From: Catajapyx aquilonaris
Taxonomy: Eukaryota
Direction of reading: 5' to 3'
Length of the DNA: 64,000 nucleotides
Assembly (NCBI GenBank): GCA_000934665.2
Contig: KZ538395.1
Coordinates: 1-64,000, forward strand
The position numbers were made by a program, and so were the translations under genes. Position 1 is the stretch's first letter. Each line of letters begins with the position of its first letter. The notes beneath the pieces were generated by a model. It made no database searches, was not told the origin of the DNA, and saw nothing but the letters and a program-made list of their open reading frames with translations. Below, piece after piece: positions 9,341 to 39,597 of the stretch.

Positions 9341-12300
9341 ATTCAACGCATACTTGCTAGCTGTTTGTTAGTAGCAGTGACAAAATCGCTGCTGTGTTTG
9401 TAACGTCAGTAAAGAGGACAGCTATGCCGAATTTGGTGGGTGTCCGATCTGAGATTGAACATGGGCCGGGCCATAATTCAAACGTCAGCTGGGTGGCGTG
9501 TATCAAACGGCCCAGTGCAGATTTTGGGTTGGGGGGTGGGAGGCCCGGGCATTGAATTTGACTGTTATCCCGCAGTCCCCGAGAGTGATATAGGAGTGGT
9601 TACGGTAGATAAGCAACGTGTCTCTCTGGGAGATGCCGCACAACCCGGGAAAATGGGCGCGGAATTTATCAGACTTTGGAGAGGCATCCATATTGGAGCG
9701 GTCTGATAGCGCTCTGGGTACACATAAGTAACACCCAGTGGAAGCGATGCTTTCTTCACATTTACACTGGAAGTTGGAACTTAAACCGGCACTTGAAATC
9801 TTATATACAGAATTCACAACCCCGTAAACAAGTTGACTCGTCACCTAGGTTCACTTTCCCCGTCCATTCGTTCAACAACATTAGAGGACAGAGTAGTATG
9901 GCACCCTGGTGGACTTTGTCCGCGCAGTGACTCATCACCAACGTGCATTAGTACTACTTTCTTCCTGAGAGTCGCAGTAGTGTACAGAGGGAGAACCTAT
10001 GCGCCTAGTGGCCTGTCGTACTATACGTCCAAGTTGGGGGGTGGGCCAAGCAGTGTTTCCAAAATTTATTAAAAATAGTCTGTTCTGTCTCACTTCTCTG
10101 TACTTGAGGACGATGTAGGTTAAGGGGTTTTTGGGGACGGGAGGAGCGAAAAGCTGACAAATTGTAACGCGGGGGAGGGTTTTGGGTGCGGAGAAGATGC
10201 ATCGAGGCGTGACGAGGCTCCTTAGGGATGCTGTCAATAGCAGCATCCGGCTGTGGAAGCTGCACATCCCTCAAGAGTGTATCGCTGATGCTATCGGGGC
10301 GTGTCTTTAAGCCCGGGCTCCCCATTTTCGGGGGAGCCCTGGCTGCTACCATTAACATTTAGCGTAATGGGGAAGCCAGGAGGAGGAGGTACGACGTCGG
10401 GGATGCGGGGACAAATTGAGGAAAATGGCGAACGCCGAGGAGGAGCCGGCTGCGAGGTATAAATGAAAATGAAAAACCGCTTTATGGCGTGTCCAAATTA
10501 AGAGGAGGAATAACGCCCGTGGCGATTATGTGTGCGGAGAGCCAAGGCGCCTCCGCATTTTCCTTTTTCTGCAACTTTTTTTTTTTTTTGTTGGAGCAAG
10601 GGAAGGAGAGAGCCCTGTAAATATAAATGCGGGCTGCGAGTTATAATATACGAAAGGAGCATATAAGTAACCCGAGGCATTCGCGAGCGGACAATTTCGT
10701 CATATTCATTCGGCGTGTAACTCAGCCAGGACGACCGGCATTGTGTGGCCTGGCTCAGTTTATGGCGTTGCAGAGCACTAGACACACCCGGCGTTCATTT
10801 ACGCCAGCTTACACCCGGGGAGAATTCCAAAGAGGCTCACTTAATACTCGGCTGCATGACCTGCACTCAACATGCAACTACTGTATACCCTCGGAGCTAA
10901 GTACTGGGTGATTGTAATGTTTAAAAAAACAAATATATATGTGGGGTTGTGCCGTTCTGAAGGATTGACTTTCCAGCACACCTTGTACTTGGTGTTGGTC
11001 TTGAGAACAGCAGCCAACGGGCGAGACAACATGGACTGGCAGTAAAAATGGGCCGGGTAACCCTGTAGGGTCCACTTAGTGCTAATTTACGGTGGTGCAC
11101 GTTTCGGCCCCTTGTTCCGATTGCAAATTCCTATTAAGCAAATTAAGCCTCCGTGCTCTGCCCTGCCCGGATGGAGCTCCAGGAATACACAACGATGCTT
11201 CACCTCAGGAGCAGAATAGCCCCCCCTTCTCTTTTCCACTTTTGCTGCCCATCCCCCGGATTTTTAGAGGGGGTCGGTTTGGGTACTAGCCAGCACTCTC
11301 CGGATTTTCTTGTGCAAGCCGTATCTTCCCCCTATACTGCCGTTTTCCTAGGCTCTCCCCTGGTGAAATTTATTGATTCCGGCTGCTGCTGGTGCTGCTG
11401 CTGTTAATAAAGCCCAATTACCCTGTCCTGTTCATTATAATGCGATAATTATGCTGACGGAGCATGAAGAGTGTAAGTTGCTGCTGAAATGAAACTATTG
11501 TATGCGCCGCATAAAGAGCTTTGCGGGGGGACTATCACAGCTGACACACGAGTCCCCAAATAATGCCATGGATGTAGGTTTCGGTTACAACAAGGGTAGG
11601 ATTTATTATAATAATATGATAGCTGCTGCACTCGCTTGTATTATTGCGGGGCCGGATTCTCTCCCACATTTATGCAGGCGAGCCGGGTATGCTTGCATCG
11701 CAGGCTCGGGTGAGTGAGTGTGTGTGTGTCTCGGATAATGCTGTAAGGCCGATTACTATGTTGGGTACGTGTCCAATTCCAGCCCTCCGCATGTTCGGTG
11801 GTTTTTGCGTGCACAACACCCGTGACATTATAATGCATGGTAATTTGGCATACCAGGAATTGTGTTAACTTATTTACGCTGCCATCAAAAGGCATTAACA
11901 AGTGGTTTTCATGGGGGTACTTTGTGCTAAACCTTCCATAATATATACTATTTGCGCGGCATTAATTCCGCGTAAACAAAAATTTGTAAAATGGAGTTAC
12001 CAGCCTGCGCGTAACAGAATAAGATTTGAACATGTTACCTGCTTTCAGCTACACAAGTTGGAAGCGACTTGAAGCAGCACTTCATATAGCTATAGTGTAT
12101 GATTTGATGCGAACAGTTCCGATTATTTTCCCTGCTGGTCCCCCTTTTGAGCGAAGGGTATATAGATCAATTTGAGTAATTTGGAGGCAAAGTTGTGCCG
12201 GGGTTTAGAAAAGGTGAGTGTTTGTGCACCGTGAGCTTGAGCGCAGGAAATGGTTGGAAGGTGAAGTATTTGCTGAGCCGAGCGTGAGGGCCAAGTAGCC

Positions 12301-18375: not shown

Positions 18376-19314
18376 CACCCCCTCCCTGACTATAGACATG
18401 GCGGAACACTTCCAACTTTGAAAACTTCAGGCCACCGTGGTTGTTGGCGCGACATAATTATGTACTAACAGTGTTAAGACTAATTTATTACGCGTGCGAT
18501 GCTTGGTTGGGGCTAGAGTGCTGTTTATTTGCGTTTGGGAGCGCAGCTGTTGCTAAAGTGCAGGGGCTGATGCCTTTATTTGAGATGCAGGTCCCAGCCT
18601 CGTGATTTTCCTCGGACAAAGAGAATAAGAGAACGGGTGACAGAAGAGAGGCACGAGGCGTAAATCTTGCGCGTAGTTTGTCTCCGAGCCGTGCTAAGGA
18701 GGTTTAAGGGCGACGAGAGTGACAAGGAAGGCAGCATCAGGTGATAAAATATTTCTTTGATTTCGACTCCTTCACGACTTTGCTCCGTTCAGTCTGCTAA
18801 ATATTGCACGAGCCCAGAGATATAACAAGTGGGACAGAGAGTTTGCCTTGCTATACTTCTCTCACATACATACACACACACAAAGAGGCTGACGTTTCCT
18901 CCCAAAGTTCATCCCTTGCTCAACCAGGTCCAGGAAATGTGCCTGGGTTCATCTCTGAATTATATACCATCCATGTCCTCAAGGGACGGCCGACACAAAA
19001 ATAATAAAAATAAAAAAGGAACAAAGGGAGAAAATTTTTCCTGTCTGTCTGCCTGGCATTTCTCGTGTTAATTTGGAGCGGGTCTTCTCTAGAGACCTGC
19101 TTGTAGCCAATGGCTCTTGTACTTGACGAGATGATGGCTCAGATGGATGGATTGCCTGGATGGAGGGATTGAGTCGGAAAAGTTTGTTTTTTTGCGCATC
19201 ACTTTTTTTTTTGTGCCCCTTATATACCCAAGGAAGAAAGCCACGAAAGGAAATGAAAGGTGGTGTTTGTACAGATCTATAGAGGTTATAAGCAGATAAT
19301 GTGTTTTCGTACTC

Positions 19315-19352
19315 GTTGACCTTATTGTTCTTCTTCTTTTCCGCAGGTAAGA
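19315..19352 (+). other. Candidate recursive splice site (ratchet point) 1, AG|GT at 19346/19347
   Basis: GTTGAC branch-like motif (A at 19319), then CTTATTGTTCTTCTTCTTTTCCGCAG|GTAAGA. No other AG for about 50 nt upstream. Downstream donor GAC|GTATGT at 19391. Confidence 0.7.
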
Positions 19353-22276
19353 TGGCCTTCTGCGAGAAGTGGTGCTGCTAACACAGTGACGTATGTCATG
19401 TCAACTTTCAAGAGAGTCCAATCTTGGTAAATGGCGCTTTTGTTCCCCTCGTCTTGCTTTGTTGATGTCGGTACCTCTAAAATGCGCACTTGGAACCGAG
19501 TGGTTTTTGGTTCAATATGTTTGGGATGGACTGCATTAATGGCCAAGTGAATCAAGTTCGCTGAATTAGGCCCTATACTCATATTCTACAGTACGCCAGC
19601 ACGGAAAGATACCTGTTATCTGATAGTTGACTTTTGCACATTAGTTAACCACACAGTGCTTGCATTTACAAGGTACCGGCATGACTTGTCGCATGACCCG
19701 TGTGTATATATGAAAGGCTGTCGGTGTGACGTACGGGTATTGTACACAGCTATTGATCAAATTTTTTGGTGCTGGCAAACGGATAAAATAATGATCACTG
19801 TCACGTGAGGCAGCGGGGGCGGACATGTCATGAAGAGTATGTATAGCGGTACCCCATGACAAGCAGAGCCTCGGACAAAAAAAAAGAGAAGAGAGAGTCC
19901 GACATCTGTGTGGCCGTCCGTGTCACGCAAATGCGAAGGACACACGATATATTGACACGGAAAGACATGGAACAACGGGCGCAAGGAAACCCACAGCCGT
20001 AATTTGAGGTAAAAATACATTTTGTTGACAAACCGTGAAGTTTAGCTTCAATATATCGGTCAAACATTGTCTTACACACCTGCTTTTTTGGGGGGGAGGT
20101 ATAGGCGACACACACGAAACGAATCGAATTTTCGTGCTGGTCCAAACCGGGTGCCTCCGTTCACATGGTGTGATATGTTTATATGCGTGAAGTAGTATAA
20201 TTGCTGCTGGTTTTCTGTCAGTCACTGGTTCGCGTTCTGGGAGAAAGTACACGAAGCCATACCCACCGCACTAAAAAGTGATCAACCGCACCAGTCGGCT
20301 CCACTGTATATGTGAGCAGAAAGGCAAGTAATTTTACTGTTGTGCCACCGCCATTTTTCGCCACAGTTATTACCTTCGTCGCATGCACAGTAGCCTACAG
20401 TGTGTTTCTTTAATGTTGATTTTTTTGGCGGGTGTGTTCATTGACTGGCTATGTGCTGATGGTTGCCTATATATACGCCAAGAAGAAATGAGCCTTCCTT
20501 TTTAATGCATCGCAGGCTAATAAGCGCGGTGTGACGCGGTATTTCGAGCGTAATATGGCCGCCTCTTCTTGCTCAAGGACCCAGAAATAGTGTCCGTTAT
20601 CACATGTGCAAATTTGCCGGCGACGTTTCGCGGAAATGTGGGTTTGTTGCCCAAATCCGGAGCTTTTCTCCCGGAAGCGAGACCAGCAGACCGTCCTCTC
20701 CGGATTTACTGAGAGACACGAATGGGGGAGGCCAGATATTAGAAAACCCAATATGCTGCTGGCTTGCGGATCATTATGAAAAACTTTGTCTTCGGACTCA
20801 TGCAGAAAGAATTCCAACAGAGAGAGTCCGTAAAAAAAGATAAGCGAACGATAAAGTTTGATCGTGAAGGAAGTTTCATGCCTCTTGGATTGAATTGGAT
20901 TTTTTTGTGTGAGGGTGTGTGTGTGTGTTGAGGTTTGCCCCGAGAGAGAAACAACCTCCCAAATGACTGCACGGAATTTGGAATTAGCCGCCCGTCGATC
21001 TCTTGTCGTCGTTGCGATGCTAAGTGGGATTTGTCCCTGCACAATCTCCTGTGAAGAACTCTGGGATGGAATCTTTTCATCCATGCTCGCGCACCCAAGG
21101 TCTGCCTGCCTTGCCTTGCCTTCTCCCTAGGGAAAAAGACCCGGGCCTGATTGAAGAAAGGAGTTTTAGCAATCCTACAAACACTTCTTTGTAGCCCAGG
21201 ATAAGGTAGCTCGTTTCCTTCTGCATGATTTAGCCCCACAGCTGCGGGCTAATTTATCAAGAAAGAGTCTGCTTACGTGTCACAAAAAAAAAAGTAAGTT
21301 CCGTCTCCCGGCGGCTTACAAATTGCAGCAACAGCGCCCAACTTTCATGTTTTTTTTTCATGCAGACGTCGGCAAAAAAAAATGGTCAATTGCTATCCTC
21401 TTGACAATACTGTATTGGGATTTTTACCGGCGCGGTGAGATTCAAAAGAGCCGCTGGAGGGACACGAAAAGGCATTTTTCCCTCTTTATTCAATGTGAAA
21501 TAGCGGCTTAATAATGCTGAAGTGTAACCAACTCAGTACATTGCCGATATTCTCAGTTCTATAAGGTGTTGAGAAAGGATCTCTAAATTTTACAACAGGT
21601 TGCAAATTTATAATTACTCTGCAGAATAACGGCAGCTTGCGAGACGGTACGACTGGTTTGATTCGCGTTATTAATGCCAAATTAACTGACAATTAACATG
21701 TGCAACGCGTATAATTTTGGATAATTTACAGCCATAAAATAAACATCATTCATGCTAATTAATATCATCATGTGCAAGGAATATAATGGAGAAAAGTACG
21801 AAATTTGCTGTAACTTCATTTGGATTATTGCGGTAATGTTTTTGACTCTCAACGGAACATTATAAAATGTTTTCAACGCCAACTTTTCGTTCCATTCCAG
21901 AGCTTTCATTAGTGCAACTCTGTCACTAATTACAAGGTGCACAGGCCAGATCACTAATTCAGGACCACTTAAATGTTCGATGAAACCCACGTGTGAGTGA
22001 GAGCCACAAGTCAGTCCTGCCAACATCCGCGTTCCAATATTCCTTCTTCCAAAAACCATCAGCCTCTGTGGACCCCCCCCTTTTCCCCTCATCCTTCTCT
22101 CCCTCTAATAAAATGAACTCGGCTACATGCTTGCATTATTGAAAAGTAAATTACAGGACCCTGTGACGGCTTCCAATTTGGAAGGAGAGGAGGGGGGGTC
22201 CCCCCATTCTGTGTGACTGTCATTTATTTGTGAAATAAGGAATCGGGAAGAGGCTGGAGGGAATGAGGAGGGGGGG

Positions 22277-22304
22277 NNNNNNNNNNNNNNNNNNNNNNNN
22301 NNNN
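22277..22304. other. Assembly gap (28 N) after a poly-G run
   Basis: Run of N directly visible. Confidence 1.
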
Positions 22305-25300
22305 GAGAAGAAGGCGTCCCCCCCCCCTTCCCATCCTTTGCACTAAGCAGGCCGGTAATTAAAATTAATTATCAACGATACGTTGGGAAACTCCCCCATA
22401 ATTAGTTGCATCCCGCGGTTAATGGCGGTCATCAGAGCCTTATTAAGGTGACGGAGAAGGAAGCCCATTCATTACATTCAAGGAGGAAAGAGTCTTGGAT
22501 CAGCAGCGCCTTACGACTCCAGCGGAGGTGAGAAGAAGAAAAAAAGCGACAACAATGTATAGGAGCGAAAATATCCATTTTCAAGCACATGGCTTGGAGC
22601 TATTTCTTCGTTGTTTTGAAATGTTCTGGCGTTGAGGTCGAATGTGCGGTTAAGAATTCAAGAGGCGAGTACTAGCTTGTGTGTAACGATTTGGAAATTA
22701 GGCGAAAATTGTGGCACACCGCGGTAATTAAAGTGCAATGAGGGTGTACAACGTAGAGGAGCTGCTCCTGTCTGCCTGATTGCTAATTAGTTTTGTTGCT
22801 TCCGTTTTGGGCCAATTTCAGAAATCACGAAAGGGTTGTCTGGCAGCAGGGAATACTCTACATGCATTATCCAAGACAAAACGTTACATATAGCCTCACT
22901 TTATATACGGTTAGCACTCGTGTTTAATCGCGGATAAGTTTCTGTGCAAATGATGGCACGTGTACGAAAATTTGAAAGAGTCATCGATATGTTATCAGGC
23001 TTCTTCATTGATGCCTCTAGCCGTATAAGGGCCATTCGCCTTATTCAAGAAAAGCTTGCCAATTTTATAGGTGCAATTTAGGGTCGTTGGCCAGACATTT
23101 TCTTGTCTCCCTGTGCATTCAAGTGGACCGTATTTTCTGATATGTTTACTTATATAGCCAGGGTCGTTAGTGTGAATGAACCTGACTCTCCTGGTGTGAA
23201 CGGCCCTATTATTTATCCCGTGGAATATCTCCTCATGCGTTTCTTCTAGCTATTAATGCGCGTCCGTGGCGATTTTGCAAGGTCTAGCGATGTCTTCTCT
23301 GAGCAGTATTTTTCAGCTGAAAGCGGACAAGGCGTGCGCGATACATGAAAAGCGAGAGAATGGCTAAGAAATTGGGCGGAACAGGCACCTCCGGTCTCCA
23401 ATTCAATCACGGGCTTTTTCCTCCTCCTTTTTTTTTGTTATCAGGCTATAGTCGCGCATTCCTGCTTCATTCCTAGGATTTCCGGAGAAGAATGTAGCAC
23501 CTCACGCGATCCGACATTTAGTTTTTACGAGACCCATATTCGTACTCATATCATTGATTGCTTCTGCTTAAAAAAGAGGACCCCTTGGCCTGATGATGAG
23601 TCGGCGGATTCCTGGCAACTCTTCACACTTGTCTCCATTTTTGGGGTTAGCCCCCGGGACTTTGGACTTGATCGAATTCCGCCCTTCGAATTAACCCATC
23701 CACATAAATTTCCATAAGCGAAGTAGGTTTCCGGGGGGAGAGCTCGGGTTCATTTTGTGGCCTCCTCGGGCTTTTCTCACTCGGCACCTCTCAAAAGCCC
23801 GCAGTTTGCAGGCCGCCTTTTCACTGGGTTCTGACGTGCGGATAAAATGTGAGGCATCTGGCCACCTCTGGGGAACGTCAGCTACCTTGGCCACACTGAA
23901 TTATGGCACTAGTTTGTAATAATCATCGAGTGAGGAGGCTGTGGGCCCCGGGCAGTACTCTGATAGCTTACACGTGCAGGTCAAAATATCCCACATGGAC
24001 TAATAGTTCGAGGAAAATGTCTAGAACATGAAGCAAGAACTGGAACGTGACTGTTCAGACGGTCCAGCTTCGAGAGTAGGCAACTTGACTCGATGAAGCT
24101 CCAAAGTGCGATTGATGCGAATAATTTCACAGAGTATAGGTTACGAGTTTCGTTTCGGAAAATCCATACTTTTGATTGTTGTCAACAATGGTTGCTATAT
24201 AGTGGCAATTATTGTTATAACCGAGGGAACCCGACCTCAGTTGGCAACCATAGGTTAGTTGAATTTTGATCATAGTTTCTGGGTGTCATACGGCGTGCTT
24301 GTTTTGATTTTATTTAACAAGTTAATACCGCTGACATTTTATTTATGTTTAGCCTGGCAGGTCCGAGTACCTGATGTAATAACTAAATAATTGATGACGA
24401 GCTAATCGGGACTTCTATAGGCCTTTCCGCGTTTGTTCCCGCTTGTTTGTGACCATTAGGGAGGGTTGTTCTGGGTCGGGCAAATATATTTGGATTGGCA
24501 TTTGAATGCGCAAAAATAAGTGGAAATGATCAGAAATAAGCGATATCGATTGGGCATTCCATTAATGCCCTCTTTTTTTTCTTTTTTTTTGGACGTGCTG
24601 TCATTGCATTTTACCCCCCACCCCCACCCTCACTGGGAATCCGCTGTGGCGTAAAAGCATAATCAGAGTCCGACACTAATCGCGTATCCATGACGCAGGC
24701 CTAACCTAAGTACAATCACAACACTGCAGTTGGCAATGGAAACCTCCACAAAAGCATTTCGCAACACCCAGCACAATAGCAGCTATTTCCTCCTGCCGGG
24801 CTAATAATGCATGTGCAAAAACAACGACCGCCCCCCCCACTCAATGATTTTTTTTCCCCCTCTCGACCCCACCGAAATTCCACCTGCTCAAACGAGGCGA
24901 AAAAACAATNAAAAGTCGGCGGAGTTGATGCACAGCAGACTCTCTTGTCCCGCCTCATTTGCATAGCCGATAATAATTATTGTGCCGCCTTCTCTTTCTG
25001 CCCCGCCCATTTTCCACGGGCCCCCCCCAAAAAAAATTCTGAAATTGGCGCTACAAGGGTGTTAAATAATGAAGTGCCGGTACAGCGGCGGTATAATTCA
25101 GCACTTTCTTGGAATGGGCGCGCGGTTTCTGCTTATATTCCGGTATTCAAATGAAGGGTTGTTGCCGGAATACCGAAGCATTGATAGTCCACTTAAGACC
25201 CGGACATTAATTTTCTCTCTCTGGCAGTTAAAAATTGCTGGTCCGTCTCCGGTTGCGGAAGTTGCCAGTAATGCGGTGACGTCAAAAGGTGCGATTGTTC

Positions 25301-25946
25301 GTACTGTTTTAGAATATCGTATCGGAGTCAGGCTCTTAAAAAAAACAACGGGTTATTGAGTTGGAGCAATATAAAAGGGGTATAACTATAGGTTATACCG
25401 GCATGTACTGGGTGTAAATGAGCTTTGTTCACTCTGTTGAAATAGCTCTGGATCACAATTGGTGAAATATCGCTTTCAACTGACCGTCGATTTGATTAAT
25501 ATTTGACAGAAATATAAGAATTTAATTCAGAGCTTATTCGGGTGAAAGTAAATTTTCATGCCAAAGCACGTGCCATTCAGTTAAACAGAAAAGTACTTTG
25601 AATAATGTACATATTAAGATATTAATTAAATTAAATATACTTCATGCAACTTGTGTGGCAGAATAACATATTTGCTACTTAAATTTTTGTCATTGAAGTA
25701 TTTGTGATACATGTCGTGTTTGTTACTACTGTTGTTTGCAGCTTCACTGTTCTCAATAATGAAAAAGGGCACAACTAGTTTATATGGAGTGTTGTGCAAC
25801 CAACCAGATACTATATTTGAACCGGAATTAATTTGATAGCATATAGGATGGAAGGGGGAGAATATTTGAGGCTGGTCATATAAAATGCAGTTGTATTGAT
25901 TTCTATCCTTCCACCTATCTGTACGAGTTAAAATTCGGCAGGAAAA

Positions 25947-25950
<4 letters not shown>

Positions 25951-26028
<78 letters not shown>
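25951..26028. repeat. (TA)39 microsatellite
   Basis: Perfect dinucleotide run. It explains the YIYIYI stretch in the spurious ORF 25626-26102. Confidence 0.98.
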
Positions 26029-26030
<2 letters not shown>

Positions 26031-26868
26031 AAAATGATTAATGAACTGGTTCATCGCATTAGCAGGGTGTGAAACCGCCCGTATAAAAGCATAATTCATC
26101 ATTTGTTTTTTGACAAATTGGTGCTAAAAGCCACTCCAAGGAACGACTATAAAAATAGAGCCAGGTCTAATAGTCGGGTGCAATAACAACAAATGAGTAA
26201 CTGCCTGGCAAATGTAATGTAATATTTTGAGCCCACCAAAAATGCTCCGGCTGCGTCATGTCGTAGGACATAAAATTCAATCCGACAAGTTTTTAAAGGC
26301 ACGTCGAAGGTAATAAACCGCACATTACCGGATCTACGCACTGAAGGCTTGGTTTCAGTTTTTGCTTCCGTGGGCGTGGGAGAGCGATATGAAAAGTTAT
26401 GATTAATGCTCCGCGGATTCCATTACACCACTGGTTAAATGTCAGCTACCATTATTACTTCTGGCCGATTGCAAATCCAGATTGACGTGTTTTGCACGCC
26501 TGCGGCATTAAATTGATGATATGTCCACTATTTTTCCAAAGATTGTGGGTTTTTTTCCTTGATGTAAAGGGAGTACTTTTTTGTGTGTTCCGAGGACGAC
26601 ATTTCCTAGTTTTCATGATTAACCCCGTAGTTGCATCTCTGAGTGGAAACGCGTTTTGAAGATAACATGGAGCATTCCAACTTAGAAATGTAAAACCAGC
26701 TTCAGCGTTTGAAAATTCTGTTTGATATGTATCCGGCTCGCATCTGTGAGATTACCATCCAATATTCTCTGGGCAAACTCCAGAGCAAAGCGAGTTCTTC
26801 CAGAAAAAGGAGAAAGGGGAGGAGGAAAAAAAGCCCAACAAAGATAGGGACATGAATACAGGTCCCGT

Positions 26869-26899
26869 GTTTTTATTTTTTATTTTATTTTATTTTTTT
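26869..26899. repeat. Imperfect (TTTTA)n simple repeat
   Basis: T-runs punctuated by A, directly visible. Confidence 0.7.
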
Positions 26900-29800
26900 G
26901 AATGCTAGCCCCCCTCTTCTTTATGCGTGGCAAAGTTTTGCATCTTTATTTGCGAGCTGAGAGTCTGGCGAGCAATTACGGAAAATGCATACGAGTCTTA
27001 TCAGAGTGCGTGTATATGCCTGCCTTTTGCAAAACCTTGAGTGGGCCCCGATTTTAGCTAAAGGCTCAAAAAGTGCAAAAAAAAGAGAGGAAGGCTTAGA
27101 ATAAGGGGGAAAAAAAGGTAGAGGATTTATGAGTAGCTGCGCCTTGTAGGATGGATCCATTTAAATTATTACCCCCTGCGAATGCTGATATGCGGTTTAC
27201 TGCATTACATCACGTTTACGTGGTTCAAGCCTTGAGTTTTGCTTGGTGTCCGACAGAGGACGTTGGGCTGGCCCTTTTCTGGCCGCCTCCTTATGTGGAG
27301 GGGGGCTCTCTTGATGATGTGTTTGATGTGCAGTGCTTTTTGGTCTGCTAAGGGTCACCTTGGTGTAATTTTAGAGCCGGAGATTGGGGTTCGAGAAATC
27401 TTATTTGGGATGATTGGTGTGCCTCCAGGGAATTTTGTGGCGCGTTTTGGTAGCCAGTGGAGAGCGGTGTATATAACTTGTAATGTACACTGAGTTCTGG
27501 CCTTTTTGGATGGCTTCAGGAGTTGTGTCTGATGTACGACCCTCTCTTTTTTTTCATTTCAAGGCTTGGGGGCTACGTGGGTGAGCCATGTACACTTGTG
27601 AGGCTTAGAAGAAATTCGAACCCAGTTAGCAACAGCATGCTTTTCCGGGTATATAGTATATAGCAGGCCAGTTTAACGGAATAAGTATCATCTTGGCCTG
27701 GCTCAGTGCGTTGAAATTATTGGCACAACCCTGAACCATCGGAGCGAAGATAATATATAGTGTATCGTAGCATATAATAATATACTACAGTGCCGAAGTA
27801 TATTAACACTTCCAGGAATGAATATGCATGGGTGGAAGAATAATTATTTATTAAATATATGCGCAGAATGGCCCAACTCGTGTAATAATATTATCGAACC
27901 ATATTTATACAGCAAAAGCATACAGTAAAAGTTATAAGTATTAACATGGAGTGCATGCAGATTCTGTGTGAACTTTCCAAAAACAATCACTTATAATAAT
28001 AATGTTTGCATAGTTTTCAATGGCCATGTTGACCTGAAATCTGCTCGTTGAATTTAATCGAGTGTAACATTTTGGGGATGTTTGTTAACACGTTGTTGTG
28101 GAACTTAGGTCAATTAGCACTAATGGCACATGGTTGGAGAGAGGTGGTCACTTCTTGATAATTAGTATCCAGTAGCAATATTTTTTGCGAACCGACTAAC
28201 AAGTGCAGCATTATCTAATTAAATTTTCCATGTTCTGACCCACTCAATACACAAGAAGGTGACCCTGTATATAGTTGGACGTAGTTTACTTTAAGGGCTG
28301 AAAATATTTGTTGTCACCGAGTGATGAGAAAGCACTTTGGGGAAGGTCTACCCTGAGAATATGCACACACTTTTTTTTTTGTGCGTCACGAACCCGTCGT
28401 CCTTGACAAATTCGGGGGTGTGCAATCGTCCAAAAAATGTCCCACGAATCCGCCGCAAATCAACGCCTTCCTTCTCTCCGATCCAGAAATTAATTAACAG
28501 ACAGAAAATTTCAGAGGTGGGCGTCTATCACGCAAAAATGGGTTTTCCTCCCACCCGAAAAAAAAAAACGGCGTCCCACGAATGCACCCCCTGGTTGTAT
28601 GGCCAATAATGAGGGGCTTTGTTGTGCCTGGACATTCTTCGGACGCGCGGCCTCTTTGAAAAGACTGCGGGGTTTGGAATTCGCCAGGGCTGGTCATCAT
28701 ATGGGGGGGGACTACTAGGGGAGGGGGCGGAAGTAAAATTTTAGTTGGTGATTGGAGGCATTACCCTGGCACATAAAAAGTGGGGTGGCCTATTGGTCCG
28801 TGGGGCGGGAAGCGCCTCCGAATGGCTTATAATTCTTTCTAGGCCAGCGCGTTTAGAAGCATGGGGGGGCTTGGGGGATGCGGCTATTGTTGAACCGAAT
28901 GGAAGAAATGTGTTGGCTTGTGGACCCCCCCCCCCTCTCCTTCTCTCCTCCCCAACTAAACCCCCCTACTCCAGGATAGTTTCCCAGAGGCCATTCTGCG
29001 GATGGAATTTTATTAAGGCGTCGAGCAGCATGCTGGAATAGGCATTCGGAATGGCCCGAGAGGGAGACAGATCGGCCGTTGCGGACATCGTAGGCCGTCG
29101 TCGGGAAAACCCCTTCGACATGGCCCAGGCTTAACAACTCCAGTTTGGGATGCCACAATGTCATTGCGCTATTGATGCTTTGGAGGTGTTGAGGCTTGGG
29201 CAGTTGTGTACCTCCACGACGTTCTGGGACATTTTGGCAGATGCACGTTTGGACTGCACCGACACTGAAACATGTAGGCTCAATAGTCAATTTATTTATG
29301 ACACCCGTGCAGTCATTAGCCAGGATAATCCGGGGGGGGGTNGGGGGGCTACAGTGTGTGTAGCCTCCACCACCGTAGGTCGCAAGCAAAGGAAAAAAAA
29401 AAAAAACTAGAGAAGCGAAGGTTTTTCTAGTCTATTTAAATTTCACTATTGAACACTACATGTAGCTGTCTAAAAATTGGGTGTCCGCAACCATTGCATT
29501 TCTAGACATTAAAATTGCTTTTGAATATTTTCAGCGGCTTCTGTGCCCATTTTAATTAGGAGTAATGGCAAATTCTGGAATTTCCAGTCAGAATCGACAG
29601 AATGTTCACATTTCTAGCATCGTATCGGCAGGAAATTGAATTTAGTTCCTTTGTTCGCATGATTTAAGAGCAACCATGAGTCTGTACAGGGCGAATCCTT
29701 TTCCTGACTGTTACATGACGTGGGTGGAGTCTGCGAGATATTCGCAGAAATTCTATGAACCTTTCAGTTTCTCAATTTGCAATTCTTCAAAAACTCCATG

Positions 29801-31336
29801 GTGGTCTTAGTGTGGGTTTTAGGCAACTAGAAAATGCAAAGGTCCATTAGTTTTACATCGTCTCAAAGATAACTACGTATAATGAATGCATTGTTTCACC
29901 ACATCATGGGCGGATGTATCCAGCTTTTAGCAGCAGAGTGAAATGCAAAGTAGGTGCCAAGTCAATGTTAGGTTACTTATTCATCTTAGGAAACTGCTGG
30001 GTGTGGTCATCTTGTATATTAATACTGATGGTGGCCATTCTTTTGTTTCCAAAATTAATTATAAGGATTAAATTTGACATATAACTAGCAGGCGTTGCCT
30101 CCTGCTGTGGCCGATTTTATTATAATGCACATTTCGCTAGGTGCATTGTTTACAGAATATCACAAATGCGAAAATCCGCATCATGGCCGACGTAACATGA
30201 ATCACGTGATAAATATACCTCGCACCACATTTCAATGGGATACTCCAGTTGGTTGAGAATAATTCGTAATTCTGCCTGATCCCGGAGATGATTAGCACAC
30301 CTGAGAGCAAATCTGGACAGGAAACATTTCCTGTTATGCATGGCGTAATGCAAGTCGTGCTTCGAGGAAGTTCATTGAAGTCTGTGGGGCCCACGGCCGG
30401 AATCGGAGGTGAGCCAGATGGGAAGGATATCGGTCTGAGAACATGTGGGAAAGGAGGATGTGGATTAATGAACTGCCTCGCATTGCGTACGAATAGACTG
30501 CGATGTAACATGTTGGAATAATACTGTATTGCATGAAACACAAGGGACATTCTGGTTGTAATTGAATTACACTGCTCCTTTCACGTATTAATTCTCCTTC
30601 CTCAATTTCCCCCCGACCTTTGACACCCAGCTGACCCCATGAATACGGACCTCAGAAACCCGCGGGCGTTTCTCGTAGTGTCCGAACCGCGCGAAAATCA
30701 CATACTCACATGTCATCGCACAACTCTTGCGAACCGGTTGATCGAGGTCGAGGTCACGGTGAAGCCATAAACCACCACCACCCCTTTGGTAATGAAGGAA
30801 AAAAATATATACCACGCAACGCCCCGCACGCCATACATTCAGTGTTGTCTCCACAGGACATTGCACCTCCCCAGGAACCCACTTCCTGCAACATCATCTT
30901 CCTTTAGAGTCTCTGACTTCTTTTTTTTTCTCTCTCTCTTCCCCTCCCCTTTTCTCCTTTCTTGTTGGAGCTTGGTGGTATTGTGGCAGTCTCTGCTTCA
31001 TCAGGTGGCTCTTGGGAGAGCATGTACCGTAGGCCCCCGGTATGGAAGAGGGGCAAACCCCTGGCCTTTCATCTCGGCAACGAGGGAAATTGGAGGGCTT
31101 CCTTGTGCCAAGCAAATCTGCCAGGGAAGTTGCTTCATCTTGTGCAGCCTCCCTATTATTCTCATATCAGAGCCCCGCACACTCCGGGCCCTTCATTCAA
31201 GACGACTGCCGACTATATGTATTTTATGGCCTTAAAAAAGAAGAGGAGCTAACTCTTTCAAAAATTGGCATAAGGTCTTGTACAGTTCATATTCGTCAAT
31301 TTCGACTACTTGAAGTGACTTGTACTTTATTTAAAA

Positions 31337-31587
31337 CCAGCAGAGGACCCGTTCTTCGTATGGTGATGAATTAAGAAGTGCGCCACAATTTCAGTATGAA
31401 ACACCATATTTAAAATTCCTACATTTTGGGTATTTAGACACAAAAAATTGCAGTTTTCGGACTTTTCCCTAAGCGGCACGTAAGAGGTCCGTGTGCCAAG
31501 TTTCAGTGCTCTCGACACTCCGGTAGTGGGTTAGGTAGCTGTGTACATAAATACCAACAAACTTTCTGCTTTGTATATGTAAGAAGA
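31337..31587 (-). mobile_element. Non-autonomous Helitron-like element, copy 2
   Basis: The minus strand starts A|TCTTCTTACATATACAAAGCAGAAAGTTTGTTGG and ends ...GGGTCCTCTGCTGG|T (CTRR), preceded by a degenerate subterminal hairpin. Homologous to 8364-8659. Confidence 0.8.
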
Positions 31588-32509
31588 TAGCTGTTGTTGA
31601 ATTTCTAGAGCTTTGCCTCCAGCTGCTCAATTTTTACCATCAATAGCGCTTCTCTTAGGTTGCATAGTTACTCAACAATTATTGTAACCTCCAGCTGCGT
31701 AAGTCATTAATAAACTATTACCAACTTTCCCACCTGTAATAGAAAAGTAGCAATGTTTTTTTGTGTTAAAAATCGGCATGCATCGGAGCTTCTACGTCAC
31801 ATTTAGCAATTCCATGCGTACCATTGACATGCGAGCGTAACCCCGGCAATGTTTTTTTTTTAAAAAAAGAATGCCAGTTTCGCACAGTACAGTGCAAATA
31901 CGGTGTGAGATTTCGCGTGCGTGACTCCTCTCCATGTGTGATGCAACCCAAAGTTAAGGAGGGGGGTGGTCCCCCATCGTTCTTGGCCTTTCCCAGTAGG
32001 TGAAGGATTGTCGTGAGACGCTCAGGTGGTGACGTCACTTCACGGCCCGATATGGCAACCTGGCCAGGCATTGTCTCCCTAACCCTTCCCCTCTTCATCC
32101 CGGTAGGATGGCACCCCAGGCTTTGGTGAAAGGAGGCAGAGGGGCCCCCCCTCCTCTTCTGATGGATGCGTAAGTTTTGCGCAGTTGGTACCGTTAACAA
32201 CATGCCCGAAGAGATACGTCGCTTAGAAGCCGGGGGGATGGGATGAATAATTGCGCAATTACCAGTGTTGTTGAGGCGCTTCCGGGATAGAAGCCGTCTG
32301 CTTATTTGGACGGGCGTGAATTAGTTGGTAAGTCCTTTGTACTAATATCACGGTTGTTTCACTGCTAATCAGTGTATAACTGGTGCGTGTAGCCATTCTG
32401 CTTGTGTCATTGTTGGTGAATCAGACAATGTCATCCTAATCGGAGTGACAGACTTGCATCGCTTGGCACCCTTGCACATGAGGTGCCATTGTCATCTCTC
32501 AGCTTCAGC

Positions 32510-32567
32510 TACAGGGTACAACTTGCAGAAATCTGGCAACCAACACTCTCTTGTAGGACACCCTGTA
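32510..32567. mobile_element. Possible tiny Tc1/mariner-type MITE remnant
   Basis: Bounded by TACAGGGT...ACCCTGTA (8-bp inverted ends including the TA). Similar TACAGGG(T/C)G ends occur singly at about 2596, 29686, 36222 and 36530. Confidence 0.3.
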
Positions 32568-33149
32568 CATCGCCTCGAGCAAAAAAAGGCAGGCTAATAT
32601 GTGTACTCCCTCACTAGTTGAGTGTACAACTGTACATTACTGTGTATGTATTCCTAGTACAGGCAGTTGGTTTCTTCCCGAACAAAAGAGTGGCCTACAG
32701 TTGGCACACCCGATAGTTTGGCGACAGTTTTCCCCGCTTTCTCCAAAAATTCCTGCTCGAGCCCCCCCTATAGCTCCTCCCTAAAAACCCTCCCATCACC
32801 CTGAGGGAGGGTTTGTGTGTGGCTGGGGTACCTGGGTTTTTCCCCTTGGCCTTTGTGAAGGTCCCCAGAAACGGGCGACCCCTGGCTTGGGGGATTGGCT
32901 GAATGAATGGCCAGAATAGGCACTTTGGGTATGGGGTGAGACTGGGGAGGGGGGGCTGAGGATTGTGAAAAACATCCCCCCTCCCCACACACACAAATCC
33001 TCCCCTTTCCACTCCCTACCCTCTCCCCGTCCCGTCGAACCCTCTAACCCTAGGGTCCCGTGCCGAGGCATTGTGAGTGCGGGCCATGTGCTGTATGCAC
33101 ACGAGGGGAATAAGGTCGGCGTCCTTGTGTTGTGTTGGCCTGCTTGGCT

Positions 33150-33266
33150 TGTTCAGAAGAGAAGGAGGATTCGGTGCTGGTGGTGGTGTAGTGCGCGTGT
33201 GCTGCAGAAAATCGCGCGCGCCGAGTGTGTGGGAGAGTGTGTAGTGTTCGGTTCGAGCCTGTAAGT
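33150..33266 (+). promoter_or_regulatory. Possible non-coding exon or alternative first exon ending at a GTAAGT donor
   Basis: CpG/GT-rich, ATG-free segment (CGCGCGCGCCGAGTGTGTG...) ending CCT|GTAAGT at 33261. The start coordinate is approximate. Confidence 0.3.
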
Positions 33267-36200
33267 AACTGGGGGGAAAAAATGGCACCGGATTTATAAA
33301 CTATATGTCACGGTCCGTCACACTAACCTTGAGCATGCTCGGTATGAAGCTGGTAATTTACGGAGAGCTTATGAGGAAGTTGGGGAGGTAGCACTTAAGC
33401 CCAATTTGGCAAACTTGCAACCGAATCATGCGGGTTTCCGGCTAACTTTTAGTAGCTCGGAAGGAAGGGGTCAGCGCTAGACTTGATGGCGCCTAGGCCG
33501 AGTCGGGCGGCGTTGCCCACTTGTTGATAATGATCCTCGTGGCCTGGATTTCCCGGTGTGTGTATGTATGGCCTTGCGATTACGCCAAAGGCAAACCGGG
33601 GGTTAACTCATCTCTGCCTTGTCTTATGATGCAACTTGAGATTTTTACTCACTTTCTATGGCAAAATACCAGCTCGTTTCGACTGCCTTTCGAAATTTTG
33701 TTGTTTGTCTAACAATGTGGGCGGAATGGGCCCAAATTATGGCTTGGATTGCGGATGGTTACAAGCGAGTTGTACATAAAGTACTGTACATCACTGGTGT
33801 GAAACGGTGGGGTTGACCAGCGTGACGCAGCTTGACGGGTCGTGCCCAAAATTCGTTATAGAGCAAAGGTAGCCGAAAATTTTTCTAAGCTGAGTGAAAC
33901 GTCCTATTTTTGTGGGGAAGAACGAAAGTTGGGGGAGGGGGTCCGAAACAGTGGGACGTACTTTTTGAAGTAGTTTCTGGCGTGACTGTACGTGACATGA
34001 AGGCGGGGCGTGGCGTCACATAATGTCGAACATCAGTGTGACACGCTTTATGTATCATCAGGAAGTCAGTAAAGTCTGTTACGCATATGTTAAAATAACT
34101 AGCATCGTAATAATTTACCTAGAAACAAATTAGCTTTTTGCACCCTATAGTGATTGTAGCTAACTATAGTTACTTTCTCAGAGTAACTTCCCCAACTCTC
34201 CCATTTGTAGCCCCGAATAATTGCTCCCAAGGGACAGATTTCTGGCACCACGCGTCTAGCCATCCTCGTCGTTGTCCTAAGTGGTTTTCTAATGACGTCA
34301 TGGGGAAAGCATGACGTCACTTATCGAGTAATAAGTGTAATTGGCATCATGATGCTAGTGTTTAAAATGAGGTCTGGGTTCGGCCCGAAAAATCAGATCG
34401 AAGGGTTCCATTTTATAACAACTCTGCCGCCGAGTGTCAAACCCGAATAAATATCAAACAGACGACGGTTTGTTAGCTCGACGTCCCCGACGGTGGATCG
34501 ACGAAAGATCACCATTTAAAATTTACGCCCGGGAAATGAAGCCGTTGAAGAGCAGTTGCCATTAAAAGCGATTCGTCTTTTGAGGATTTTGCTGCTTGTC
34601 TGGATCTTTCCTGCGACTGATTTTCACTAGGTTTAATCAATACAGGAGGAATTACCTCTTTTAGGTCCTTTTTTTCTCTCCTTTTCCCCCGTTCCACCCC
34701 TGCAGCCACCAATCCACGTGGGTGTCTCTCGGGGTATCTGCTCTCCCTGGGTCCTTTTATATTTGATAGGCTCCTTGGAAAAGCGGTTTTGCAGCCCCAA
34801 TTTTATTCCGGGAGCCGTCTTGGGAACTTCCGACTGTTGTGAAGCGGCAGATTAATCATTGGGAGATAAATTATTAAATGTGATCACGCAGGAAGGCGTG
34901 CTGCTTAAGGGCCTGTTTCCCAAGGCTTTTGAGGGAACCAGAAGAGAGCAGGAATCGAGCCTCTCTCGGAGAGTGTAAATCAACCCCCCTTGGAAATTAA
35001 TTCTAGCTAATCAAATGTCACTGGTAGAGCTTGTGAACTGGGATGTAAGCGATTCTAAGGGGTTATCCTCATTAACTTTAAGGAAGACCATTTGCGCACT
35101 ATCCAGGAGTCTGCACGTTTGAGAGAAAACTGCAGCATCGTTTTTTTTTCTCCGTGGCCCAGAAGGAACACCCTGTAATTCTGGCCGCCATTCAGCTGTA
35201 GTAAGTAGCCTGGGTAGTAGAGTGCGAAACATGAGACGGGAGCATTACAGAGCATCGCTTGGGCATTAGAGATGAAAAGCAAATGATAGTGGTAGCTCGC
35301 AGGACTACGGGAGAGGCAGCATGTGCTGCTGACAGCTCGGGCTTTACCTTTTGCCAAATGGAAAGAGCGCAAGCTTCTCCAGACATTGTTCGTGGGTCTG
35401 ACGCAATTCGCTCGTTCATGTGCAGGTCTCCGGCACACTGCGCATTGTCATGCTCGCGCACACGCACCTCAGGATAATAATAATAATATATAATAAAAAA
35501 AGAGAGGTTGTGTAGAAACGTGGAAACTCGATGACCAACACGGGTCGATTCTCATATCCTGAGCGGGTACATCTCATGTTTCGTGTGGTTGACAAACTAC
35601 ACTGTAGTCGTGCGCGCTCTCTCTCTCCTCCCTCAGTCTACTTTTTTTTGGGGAGGTACACGCCCCGGTATCAAAATAGCGCTCTTCAGTGGCAAAGGAG
35701 CCGAGGCACAGATCTGTTTCAAGCATGTTAATGGATGCCCACAGGGCTTCTCTAGGCTCACAAAGAGGCTCTCTGCAACCGTAGCTTCCTACCCAAGTAC
35801 GGTGAAACCATAATGCCCTTCAGGTGTCGAGCCCGAGACTTGACAGCGCGCGCTCAGGAAGGAGGCAAGAACGTACGTAACTCTGTTAACAAGTAAAGCG
35901 GCACAATAATAACCGAGACACTTGACCTCCAGGCATGCGAGAGGAGGAGGAGGAGACGAGACCTGAATACATAACATTCCGAGGTTGGAAGATGGCATGT
36001 GCATGGCATTGCATTAATGCTCGATAAGCGTCCGGTGCAACGACCTGCAGCACAGCCGGTCAGAAAATGTTCTGTTATCAATGTACGGAATGGATATGAG
36101 AGGCTTCCGATAGATACTCGGTCGTCTTCGTCAGACCGTTGAGGATTTGCAGTTAGTAATAGCTGGTTGGGCTGGGAAGGGGAAGTCTGCTTGGTGAGTC

Positions 36201-39200
36201 ACCTACTTTTGATTCACACAGTACAGGGTGTGACCATTCCGCTTTCTCGGACATTACCAACACTCTTAGTTTCGAATTGATGCGCGAACACTCCCATTAT
36301 TGCTCTCTTGGTGACTAAAGTACAGGACGAAAACATCTGAATCGGTCATGCCGATTGCAAAAAGGCACAATATCAGACACAGGGTAGCGCACTGCCCAAA
36401 AGAAGCCAATTCAAGGAGTGGGTGTATCTTGTTTGCCTAAGCAACCTGGTTGGAAGGAAGAATTAGTTGCGTTTGGAAAAATTTATGAGAGCAAATCACG
36501 TCTCCAAGCACCGTTTGCTATTGTTTCGGTACAGGGCGTATATGTTTGAATCTCGTGTGAAATTTTGTAACGGTAGTTTATATACGTATGCCTGTTAAAA
36601 ATAAAGTGGCATCATCCCTGGCGCTGGAGCCAGTAAGGTTGGAGTTTGCCAACGTGTGCACGCAGTGTATTTGCACAAATGTTGAGTAGACGAGGAGTCC
36701 GCAAATAGCATGCATGGCAATCAGTGTTGCAACAAGTGTTGACTTGGATGATTTGATGTCATAATATGTTGGGTATATGGGGGGGGAAGTCTGCGTAGTT
36801 GACCTATGGCCCTTGTGCCCACCACACTCTTTGAAACCGCCGTTGTTTGCCCGAGCAATCACCAAGAGCAAATTTTACTAGATGCAATTTGATATTCAAT
36901 CGTTGAAAAGCGCTGTGTGTTTGTACCTAATCTGACGAGTGATGGGATTGCAAGTGCAATTATTTGCAAACAAAAATGTACAAGAGCCTCCCAGGCATGG
37001 GCGTAATTCCGACCATGCAGGCTGCATAAATTCGAAATAACAGTTATTCGGGGAGCAGGAGGCTCAAGTCTTAGGCTTGTTTCGTGCAGCACGAGGTCCC
37101 TTTGAGTATTTAGCTGCCTTTTGTGATAGCACCCAACATCAGAGGCGCGCAATAAATTATTCCCAGTAATTCTCTAATATCTCTTATGCCCTCTCTCCGT
37201 TCCGACTAATGCTATTGGTGCAAAAGTTTTGTTTCTGAGAAACGGAAACCTGCAATGATCATTCCAGTGGAACAAACTTGATCTTCTCTGTTTGCATGTA
37301 TATATCGAAAGCTCATAAGAAGAGTTCGCAGGGGAGGATGCCGCTCAGCGCTTGTAATTTGAAAATTTTTCCCTGGACGAATATTCGCTGCCTGGAAAAA
37401 CAGGAAGAGAGTGTCTCTGGAAACAACTTCCTGAAAGATGCATCTTCTTAGACGTTTAATTAACGAGCCTGGAAGTGTCCTCCTCTTCCAGCAACCTCCC
37501 CAGTTTCAAAAGGGGAGAAAAAATATATATGGCTGATCCAGAGTTTTTTTTTTTTTTGAGGCCACGTTTTTTTAACACTAAAAAAAAAGCTGGATCCTGG
37601 GAGAGAAGCGAGCACCTCCCGGTCTCTCCTAGCGACATAATTAGCAAGAGGCGGGAGATGATGACGGGGATAATTAGTTTGTAATAGATAAGGAGCCCTG
37701 CAGAATAGGACGCGGGATTCCCGACATTTTCGGCGGGATATAAGTCCGGGAGATCTGCCTTGGGATTTACATCAATTGGGCCAGGGGGTAAAAAAAAAGA
37801 GAGGACGCTCCCTGGAGGCTTTTCCCCTGATGATAAAATAAGTAGTTAGGAGCTTGTTAGGAAGGAATCATCTCCCTGGTGACGGAATCCTATAGGCCAG
37901 GAGATAGTTTTCGCGTTTTATTATGCTGTCGAAGAGAGGTCGTAAACCGGGGTGTGGCTGTAAACATTTTGGGCATCAGCAAAAAGAAATGTCCCTAGGG
38001 ATCTGAGAGGAGAAAAGTGCGATCATTGCTGTCCGGAAAATGTATATCATCCCGCAGTTAGTTCAAGTGCTTCGAGAGTAAATTGCAATATTCAACACTA
38101 ATCAGGAGCAGCAGTGGTGCTGGGCTAGGTGCGTTTCACCAAGTACATGTTTCGCGGTAATTTTACTGCCTCTATAGTGCGACTCCGCCGCAGATTAGTT
38201 TATCCGGTTATGGCAGTCATTAGAAGACCACTAATTCGGAAGATTCCGTTTCGGAAGTCCCGGCCACATTTCGAGGCATTAAATCTCTTCCGAAAGGACA
38301 GGGTTGCTGCAGGTTAGAAAAATATGTCTGTAAAACATCAGGGGGAGTGTTTCGCAATTTTGGCACCCCAAATTCATTATTTCGCACTGGAATAAGGCTT
38401 GCATATGCCAAATACGCACGTTCAAGTTTCGAAGGGGGCGGTTGGCAGTAACCAGAAGAAATTCCGATATCGAGTGGGTTAGAAGGGGCTTCTGTTTACT
38501 CATGAATTGGAGATGAGAAAACTTGTGCCCTCCGGCGAAGGGCCAAACGAGACTTGTGTGTACTCTACGTGAGGTGGAAAAATATCATTTCTTTCTTTAA
38601 ACAAAAAAAAGCAAAAAAAAACCGCGGCTTAAACGCGCATTTTAATGCGAAGTTATGGAGCGTGTTTACTGCATCTGCATCCAAATTAGCAATTTCGGTG
38701 TAGTGATAACGGGTTGGGGGGCGATAAATTTTTGGTTGTATTTGCCATCATGTTGCTGACAGGCACCAAGGCTGCATGAAGCTCATTTCTTGCTCGCCAG
38801 ATCTTATCACGTGTGATTAGTAAATTACAGTCAGGAAACTGTTATGGTTGAAAATTGCAATGGTTTGCTGAGAGACGCATGGTTTCGTTGCTCAGGGCTA
38901 ACAAAACATCATTGTTGTTCTAATGTCAACACCAATGGCAGCAAATATAGCCATGAACAAATTTATGAGAGAGTGACCCTGCTTTATCTGTCGATTCACT
39001 CGTATGATCCCTGACCAAAGCAGAAATGCCCGCGTACGTGCCACCGAGCTCTGCCCACATAAATAATAATTAAGCCTCAAGAGTCTGGTGGCTTATGAAT
39101 ATTTTCGTTGAATAATGGCGTCGGTTGCAAGAGTGTCATGCGCTCTAATTCTGGCAATTATCATCTTGTTTGTTATGCAACGGTTCTTTTGAGACATGTT

Positions 39201-39507
39201 TCTCCTCCCCTTTCGCAACGTGCTTTTGTTTCACGGAAATGAATGCGTCAAGTCAGCAGAACGGTTGGTACAGTTTCCTTGGACATGTGACATTTCCGGT
39301 ACATATTCAATAAACCATGCCGCCATTGCCAATTTTGGGTACATGTATGAGCAGCTGCTTCTAACACCAAATTGAGCATCCCAGGTGTGTCTGAGACTAA
39401 CTCTAACCAAGTGTATTTTTTTTTAAGCGTTCCCCCTTCCCCCATCTCTTTTTTTGTGATGAGAAGGGGGAAGTGACCCTTGACACATCTGCCCTGGTAT
39501 ACCACTC

Positions 39508-39546
39508 TCTGATTTGTGCCCTCCTCCTCTTTTTTTGCAGGTAAGC
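39508..39546 (+). other. Candidate recursive splice site (ratchet point) 2, AG|GT at 39540/39541
   Basis: CTGAT branch-like motif (A at 39512), then TTGTGCCCTCCTCCTCTTTTTTTGCAG|GTAAGC. AG-free for about 65 nt upstream. Downstream donors GTGAGA (39589) and GTGAGT (39632). Confidence 0.72.
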
Positions 39547-39597
39547 GGCTTCTTACCGGCTCTAAAAAAAAACATTGAAAAAAAAAAAGTGAGACTA

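Follow-up and report, generated by a model that had tools for sequence, protein, structure and literature searches.

Two ratchet-point-like splice motifs about 20 kb apart on one strand of a Catajapyx aquilonaris contig, and a possible giant intron removed in steps

Is a giant intron removed in steps at this locus, or do two well-formed splice motifs occur in it by accident? The locus is a stretch of 64,000 nucleotides of Catajapyx aquilonaris (contig KZ538395.1, positions 1 to 64,000 of the forward strand), the whole of which is called the window below, and the elements in question are two motifs that resemble the ratchet points of recursive splicing, in which a complete 3' splice site directly abuts a GTAAG donor. 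These motifs stand at 19346/19347 (site 1) and 39540/39541 (site 2), both on the + strand; here and in the sequences that follow, the slash marks the junction. The early work on such ratchet points with a zero-nucleotide exon in Drosophila was reportedly that of Hatton in 1998 and Burnette in 2005, as cited in Duff et al. In the study of Duff et al. (bioRxiv 10.1101/006163), ratchet points were defined by the AG/GT juxtaposition, by junction reads from an exon to the site, by a saw-tooth density and by lariats.

Two candidate juxtaposed splice sites and their parts

Site 1 reads ttcttcttcttttccgcag/GTAAGATGG or, with a longer upstream flank, cgttgaccttattgttcttcttcttttccgcag/GTAAGATGG, and site 2 reads cctcctcctctttttttgcag/GTAAGCGG or, with the longer flank, ctctgatttgtgccctcctcctctttttttgcag/GTAAGCGG. 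Both fit exactly the pattern YYYYYYYYYYYYNCAG/GTAAG, that is (Y)12NCAG/GTAAG, and the distance between their junctions is 20,194 nt. Pyrimidines occupy 17 of the 20 positions before the NAG in site 1 and 18 of 20 in site 2, the zone free of AG extends over 49 and 65 nt, respectively, and the donors that would be regenerated match MAG/GTRAGT at eight of nine positions in both cases. A branch-like motif of the form YTRAY is present upstream of each junction, TTGAC with its A at 19319 (−28) in site 1 and CTGAT with its A at 39512 (−29) in site 2; the baseline for such a motif with its A between −36 and −21 is 11-12% of positions, and it was found in 14 of 128 acceptor-like sites. The dinucleotide at positions −6 and −5 is CC in site 1 and TT in site 2. 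The original prediction had described two sites on the same strand at this distance, with branch motifs, AG-free zones, strong pyrimidine tracts, CAG acceptors and near-consensus donors, and in all these respects it proved accurate.

Strand-specific excess over chance

All scores used here are rule-based rather than taken from a position weight matrix built from the table of fly sites of Pai et al. (2018). As counted in the window, AGGTRAG occurs seven times on the + strand and three times on the minus strand, and at least 14 pyrimidines among the 20 upstream positions are found only in sites 1 and 2. When a YAG, at least 16 of 20 pyrimidines and an 8/9 donor are required together, sites 1 and 2 are the only ones retained among 230 AGGT on the + strand and 194 on the minus strand, and the earlier claim that the minus strand holds no equally good site stands, with none comparable among those 194. 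Dinucleotide shuffling of the window (n=200) gave a mean of 0.07 sites with at least 16 pyrimidines, and two or more such sites in none of the 200 shuffles. The exact YYYYYYYYYYYYNCAGGTAAG pattern has two matches in the window against a mean of 0.00 in 100 shuffles; with up to two mismatches, three matches were found where 0.47 were expected, the third being on the minus strand and lacking the GT.

Because the window is unusually rich in homopolymer and CT runs, an empirical null was also applied, which was built from the window's real pyrimidine tracts and in which a YAG with at least 16 of 20 pyrimidines counts as acceptor-like. The + strand has 35 such sites and the probability of GTRAG following an AG is 0.0018, from which 0.065 ratchet-like sites are expected; two were observed (Poisson P=0.002), and P ranges from 0.024 to 0.0007 as the pyrimidine threshold is moved from 14 to 17. 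On the minus strand none of the 42 acceptor-like sites is followed by GTRAG, the expectation being 0.036. A stricter filter, requiring in addition a YTRAY motif at −36 to −21 and 49 nt or more without AG before the acceptor, retained 8 of 128 + strand sites at a threshold of at least 14 pyrimidines and 3 of 35 at a threshold of at least 16, and on the minus strand 6 of 154 and 1 of 42, respectively. Two of the three best + strand acceptors (strict filter, at least 16 pyrimidines) are sites 1 and 2. By our arithmetic, the strict-filter acceptors multiplied by the same probability of 0.0018 give about 0.005 expected ratchet-like sites.

The excess is thus confined to one strand, and it can be set against published densities of ratchet-point sites (RP-sites). 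In the accessible part of the work of Shepard et al. (2009, PMC2773006), these are given per 100 kb for introns longer than 50 kb, scored by the Burnette score at an 80% threshold: 2.2 on the intron strand and 0.10 on the complementary strand in fly, 1.0 and 0 in mosquito, 0.81 and 0.10 in beetle, 0.54 and 0.07 in sea urchin, 0.48 and 0.12 in bee, and about 0.1 on either strand in all eight vertebrates. Since the invertebrate densities lie far above background, strong sense-strand RP motifs in long invertebrate introns are, as far as these values go, mostly non-random. In our window the density is 3.1 per 100 kb on the + strand (two in 64 kb) against 0 on the minus strand, about 30 times the published background, and the excess of the sense strand over its complement is therefore present within this one window. 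The expectation of 0.065 per 64 kb from our empirical null agrees with that published background.

A possible giant intron and its rivals

From these observations we infer a transcript on the + strand, the direction and order of its splicing, and the intron itself. We lean towards regarding both sites as genuine ratchet points, at which a giant intron is taken out about 20 kb at a time; the window would form part of a very long intron, belonging to a + strand gene in a non-vertebrate animal, with 19347 and 39541 as intronic ratchet points. Two comparisons support this reading: the candidate branch motifs fall within the range of fly recursive lariats, whose branch points lie at −36 to −21 with a peak at −30, and the spacing falls within the range of fly segment sizes, which average 17,953 ± 9,039 bp and extend from 2.6 to 63.6 kb (Duff et al., 10.1101/006163). 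It is also compatible with the lack of a coding signal anywhere in the 64 kb.

If the reading is correct, the spliceosome would first read each site as a 3' splice site, through the branch A near −28 or −29, the pyrimidine tract and the CAG. Recognition would probably proceed by exon definition, a cryptic recursive-splicing exon (RS-exon) being closed by a weaker donor that lies about 44-80 nt beyond the site. The upstream exon, once joined to G19347, would recreate a 5' splice site (exon/GTAAGA), which would outcompete the weaker downstream donor and be spliced to the acceptor at 39540; the resulting exon/GTAAGC would in turn use the acceptor that comes next, perhaps that at 60056. In this way the intron would be excised in segments of about 20 kb, and nothing of it would be kept in the mRNA. 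According to the available text of Joseph et al. (2021, PMC8605326), a ratchet point depends on a cryptic RS-exon, about 50 nt long, whose downstream donor is the weaker one. Site 2 has a candidate for such a donor, GTGAGA, matching seven of nine positions at +48; the baseline for a donor of at least 7/9 at +30 to +100 is 14%.

Several points weigh against this reading. The donors downstream of site 1, at +44 and +80, match at only six of nine positions, no better than background, and they are uninformative because a donor of at least 6/9 lies at +30 to +100 for 49% of + strand positions. The CC of site 1 at −6 and −5 departs from the TT found there in 196 of 197 fly ratchet points (Duff et al., 10.1101/006163), and CCGCAGGT occurs in none of the 539 rows of the fly table (Pai et al. 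2018, PMC6110457); the TT rule is documented in Drosophila only. All thresholds, and the test on spacing given below, were fixed after the sites were known, so that the P values are indicative only, and the first reading of the sequence had already chosen the best-looking sites in 64 kb. The common homopolymer and pyrimidine-rich runs weaken the shuffle nulls and leave the empirical null intact. Moreover, no flanking exon was identified in the 64-kb window, which could be intergenic, and the strand skew described below was rejected as proof of + strand transcription, since it is ambiguous. The stepwise removal proposed in the original prediction is supported in part, by sequence features expected of recursive splicing (strand excess, candidate branch motifs, AG-free zones, the weaker +48 donor of site 2 and the spacing) and not by the TT rule at site 1.

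The explanation that survives best beside it is chance, under which the sites would be unselected consensus matches in non-coding DNA rich in pyrimidine tracts, unused or acting as cryptic sites at noise level. It draws on the same homopolymer and CT-rich runs, on the same selection of best-looking sites with post hoc thresholds, on the breach of the fly rule at site 1, and on the fact that about 0.1 RP-site per 100 kb per strand is the background of every genome in the values available from PMC2773006, so that some chance sites are to be expected genome-wide. Yet the window has two sites on a single strand where 0.065 would be expected even with its real pyrimidine tracts, both sites combine a well-placed branch motif with a long AG-free zone as only 3 of 35 acceptor-like sites do, and the observation was reached by none of the 100 and none of the 200 shuffles; we therefore hold chance to be a rather doubtful account of the pair.

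A second alternative keeps the sites in + strand splicing and gives them another function, as acceptors of expressed exons that start with GTAAG or as sites used both as acceptor and as donor; the exons could be alternatively included RS-exons like mI and mII of Ubx, poison exons or exons of untranslated regions. The downstream donors of both sites would serve such exons, the 80 nt that follow site 1 are open in one frame, and the 31-nt unit at 60057-60087 indicates that short exon-like units do occur on this strand. In mammals, moreover, RS-exons are mostly expressed rather than cryptic, although in flies more than 500 intronic ratchet points compare with fewer than 50 expressed RS-exons, both according to the accessible part of Joseph et al. 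(2021, PMC8605326). The candidate exons of the window carry no coding signal, that of site 2 being mostly poly-A. Ordinary exons start with GTRAG only about once in 500 cases, and a succession of two such exons would even then point to selection for the donor that is regenerated. Another splicing function of this kind is distinctly improbable here, and an origin of the sites outside + strand splicing, for example as part of a repeat family that escaped recognition or as a pyrimidine element bound by a protein, is scarcely credible, because no direct repeat of 40 nt or more is present in the 64-kb window and the site flanks align at the consensus alone, so that the sites are not repeat copies, and because branch motif, AG-free zone, tract, CAG and GTAAG stand in the order and spacing specific to splicing.

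A further acceptor and the surrounding sequence

The third of the best + strand acceptors, a CAG ending at 60056, is found 20,516 nt beyond site 2. It is not a ratchet point (60056/60057); the 31 nt that follow it (60057-60087) are open in all frames and are followed in turn by AAG/GTGAAT, an 8/9 donor. As a candidate micro-exon, these 31 nt may represent either the next exon or a cryptic one in the putative + strand transcript. Strong donors number only 18 on the + strand, and all three of the best acceptors have one of them as partner, at distances of 0, 0 and 31 nt, while a donor of at least 8/9 within 300 nt was found for 10 of the 128 acceptor-like sites. The two gaps, of 20,194 and 20,516 nt, are so nearly equal that three random points would give such equality with P=0.015, a value computed post hoc. 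Coupling and spacing look as they should if selection acted against strong acceptors left unpaired in a + strand pre-mRNA; they are consistent with this without proving it. None of the acceptor-donor pairings longer than 100 nt (136-282 nt) is open in any frame, and a 60-nt pairing is open in two. From the same features one might go further and propose an animal lineage, as yet without experimental demonstration of recursive splicing, whose giant introns are constitutively cut at ratchet points spaced by about 20 kb, with a looser acceptor grammar that allows CC at −6 and −5 and with a spacing selected for step length; such a generalisation seems to us unlikely. The coordinates of sites 1 and 2 and of the third acceptor are collected in Table 1.

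Table 1. Positions of the splice-like features of sites 1 and 2 and of the third acceptor, numbered along the window
Feature	Positions	Strand	Remarks
Site 1, branch-point-like motif TTGAC	19316-19320	+	branch A 19319, −28
Site 1, 3' splice site, CAG acceptor ending 19346	19296-19346	+	49-nt AG-free zone; 17/20 pyrimidines; CC at −6/−5
Site 1, predicted regenerated donor GTAAGA	19347-19352	+	8/9 to MAG/GTRAGT
Site 1, candidate cryptic RS-exon	19347-19426	+	44 nt to gac/GTATGT (19391) or 80 nt to ttg/GTAAAT (19427)
Site 2, branch-point-like motif CTGAT	39509-39513	+	branch A 39512, −29
Site 2, 3' splice site, CAG acceptor ending 39540	39474-39540	+	65-nt AG-free zone; 18/20 pyrimidines; TT at −6/−5
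Site 2, predicted regenerated donor GTAAGC	39541-39546	+	8/9
Site 2, candidate cryptic RS-exon, 48 nt (39541-39588)	39541-39594	+	weaker donor aaa/GTGAGA (7/9) at 39589
Third complete acceptor, cag ending 60056	60010-60093	+	pyrimidine tract of about 45 nt; CTAAC

A second unit resembling a micro-exon was seen on the + strand at 11638-11718, with the acceptor tctctcccacatttatgcag, 32 nt (11678-11709) and the donor CGG/GTGAGT. Weaker AG/GT junctions at 876, 14941, 32000, 39900, 44576, 47250, 48035 and 60088 were tried as ratchet points and rejected, each of them lacking one or more of the required features (pyrimidine tract, YAG, branch motif, AG-free zone, donor). The one at 876 (816-935, + strand), 18,471 nt 5' of site 1, is a weak ratchet-point-like ttactaatttag/GTAATT; it was not accepted with confidence, as its AG-free zone of 87 nt goes with only 13 of 20 pyrimidines and with a CTAAT that lies too close (−6) to act as a branch.

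The window as a whole has a GC content of 45.5% and a CpG observed/expected ratio of 0.80, and on account of the latter we argue that it is not vertebrate DNA. None of the 138 open reading frames (ORFs) scanned, out of 173 of at least 85 aa, reached a Pfam cut-off; matches below threshold, namely ORC5_lid (20.1 bits, cut-off 27.1), DUF2434 (15.4, cut-off 25) and gpUL132 (16.1, cut-off 24.4), were taken as noise. Rfam and tRNA scans of the window gave no matches, and a period-3 scan gave no peak (maximum ratio 3.9, 99th percentile 2.5), which is weak evidence of absence, since the scan was uncalibrated on known exons. The window looks entirely non-coding, and this would suit intergenic DNA just as well as an intron of more than 64 kb; the giant intron is proposed solely because no exons were detected.

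The + strand is skewed in all eight 8-kb blocks, with an excess of G over C (7.6%; skew 0.04-0.11) and of T over A (3.6%; skew 0.008-0.077), and the cumulative GC skew rises across the window without a turn. This asymmetry may stem from transcription or from replication. The introns of fly show C over G together with T over A on the coding strand, according to the accessible text of PMC5786239, so that the G excess of the window is opposite to the fly norm. A negative relation between G−C and A−T at large scales, such as the opposite signs in the window also show, is reported for most animal genomes sampled in PMC2267173, in the available part of which the split into transcribed and untranscribed sequence is made for human and mouse only.

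Other observations concern the composition and the repeats of the window. Homopolymer runs of at least 8 nt are unusually many (52 of T, 36 of A, 12 of C and 10 of G), C8 reaching 144 times its expectation, and words of the type CCTCCC/GGGAGG are abundant. Single N occur six times, at least four of them inside G or C runs as judged from the ORF translations, which suggests uncertain run lengths in the assembly. A near-perfect inverted repeat at 55379-55578, with 88-nt arms that are 90% complementary and a 24-nt loop, folds as RNA at −159.5 kcal/mol against −66.5 in shuffles (z = −20.4), and is perhaps an element of foldback or MITE-like type, or else a locus of long hairpin RNA. At 25950-26028 there is a perfect (AT)39.5 microsatellite.

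Searches elsewhere for the sites themselves returned nothing: metagenome contigs were scanned for exact copies of two probes, a 28-mer from site 2 and a 27-mer from site 1, with no match to either, and a full-text search of papers for the site sequences found none. As a proxy for conservation at the protein level, which concerns site 2 only, a 146-aa ORF on the minus strand spanning that site was compared; it had 20 word-sharing candidates, none of them with E≤0.001.

Recursive splicing in other animals

The mechanism discussed here is already well established, and the strand-specific enrichment of its motifs in invertebrates has been in print since 2009, so that our reading, if true, would extend known biology and not change it. 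The original prediction had called the architecture poorly charted in other invertebrates, which is somewhat overstated, as in that year the enrichment was reported for long introns of mosquito, beetle, bee and sea urchin (PMC2773006, in its accessible part). If the reading holds, an intron spliced recursively in several steps would be added outside the few species in which the process has been demonstrated, and site 1 would be a natural variant from which the almost invariant TT of flies is absent. The very regular step length bears on the proposal that a long intron is divided into "bite-sized" pieces. The non-TT acceptor of site 1 and the ruler-like spacing are the mildly interesting features of the locus.

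Outside Drosophila, a recursive site has been predicted in the 230-kb intron of NPF1 of the migratory locust, by means of the Burnette matrix, a branch point and a pyrimidine tract. That site has the support of RNA immunoprecipitation of U2AF65 (prediction and support both from the available text of PMC8892266), whereas ours are predicted from the sequence. The invertebrate RP-sites of PMC2773006 rest on the same kind of evidence as ours, a density on one strand, which is 3.1 against 0 here and 0.5-2.2 against about 0.1 in the published values; these are, however, genome-wide statistics over annotated introns, in contrast to one unannotated window with a rule-based score. Long vertebrate introns show no enrichment of RP-sites in the same source (ratio 0.9-1.5), unlike this window. 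The RS-exons of vertebrates (Sibley 2015 and Blazquez 2018, via the accessible part of Joseph et al. 2021) have the same AG/GTAAG and, after it, a weaker donor marking out a short exon, whose skipping depends on how the two donors compete (Joseph et al. 2021, PMC8605326).

The closest comparison is with Drosophila, where 197 sites were found in 130 introns of 11-133 kb (Duff et al., 10.1101/006163), and where recursive sites occur in 63% of introns longer than 40 kb, with typical pieces of about 9-15 kb, as given in the accessible part of Pai et al. (2018, PMC6110457). Fly sites are known from junction, saw-tooth, lariat and conservation data, whereas those of the window are predicted from the sequence, and no 12- to 14-mer of either flank matches any of the 539 fly sites listed in the supplements of Pai et al. 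In the fly table of 539 rows, TTGCAGGT is counted 128 times, CAGGTGAGT 48, CAGGTAAGC 36, CAGGTAAGT 27 and CAGGTAAGA 6 times (Pai et al. 2018, PMC6110457). The TTGCAG/GTAAGC of site 2 is a common fly spelling, and site 2 fits all the sequence rules, the TT at −6 and −5 and the GTGAGA at +48, a candidate RS-exon donor, included; site 1 fits them apart from its CC. The ratchet points of Ubx, kuz, osp, fz and luna have the same juxtaposed (Y)nNCAG/GTRAG, with a branch motif near −30 and on one strand, and in exon-free DNA they too come several to a locus, at intervals of about 10-20 kb.

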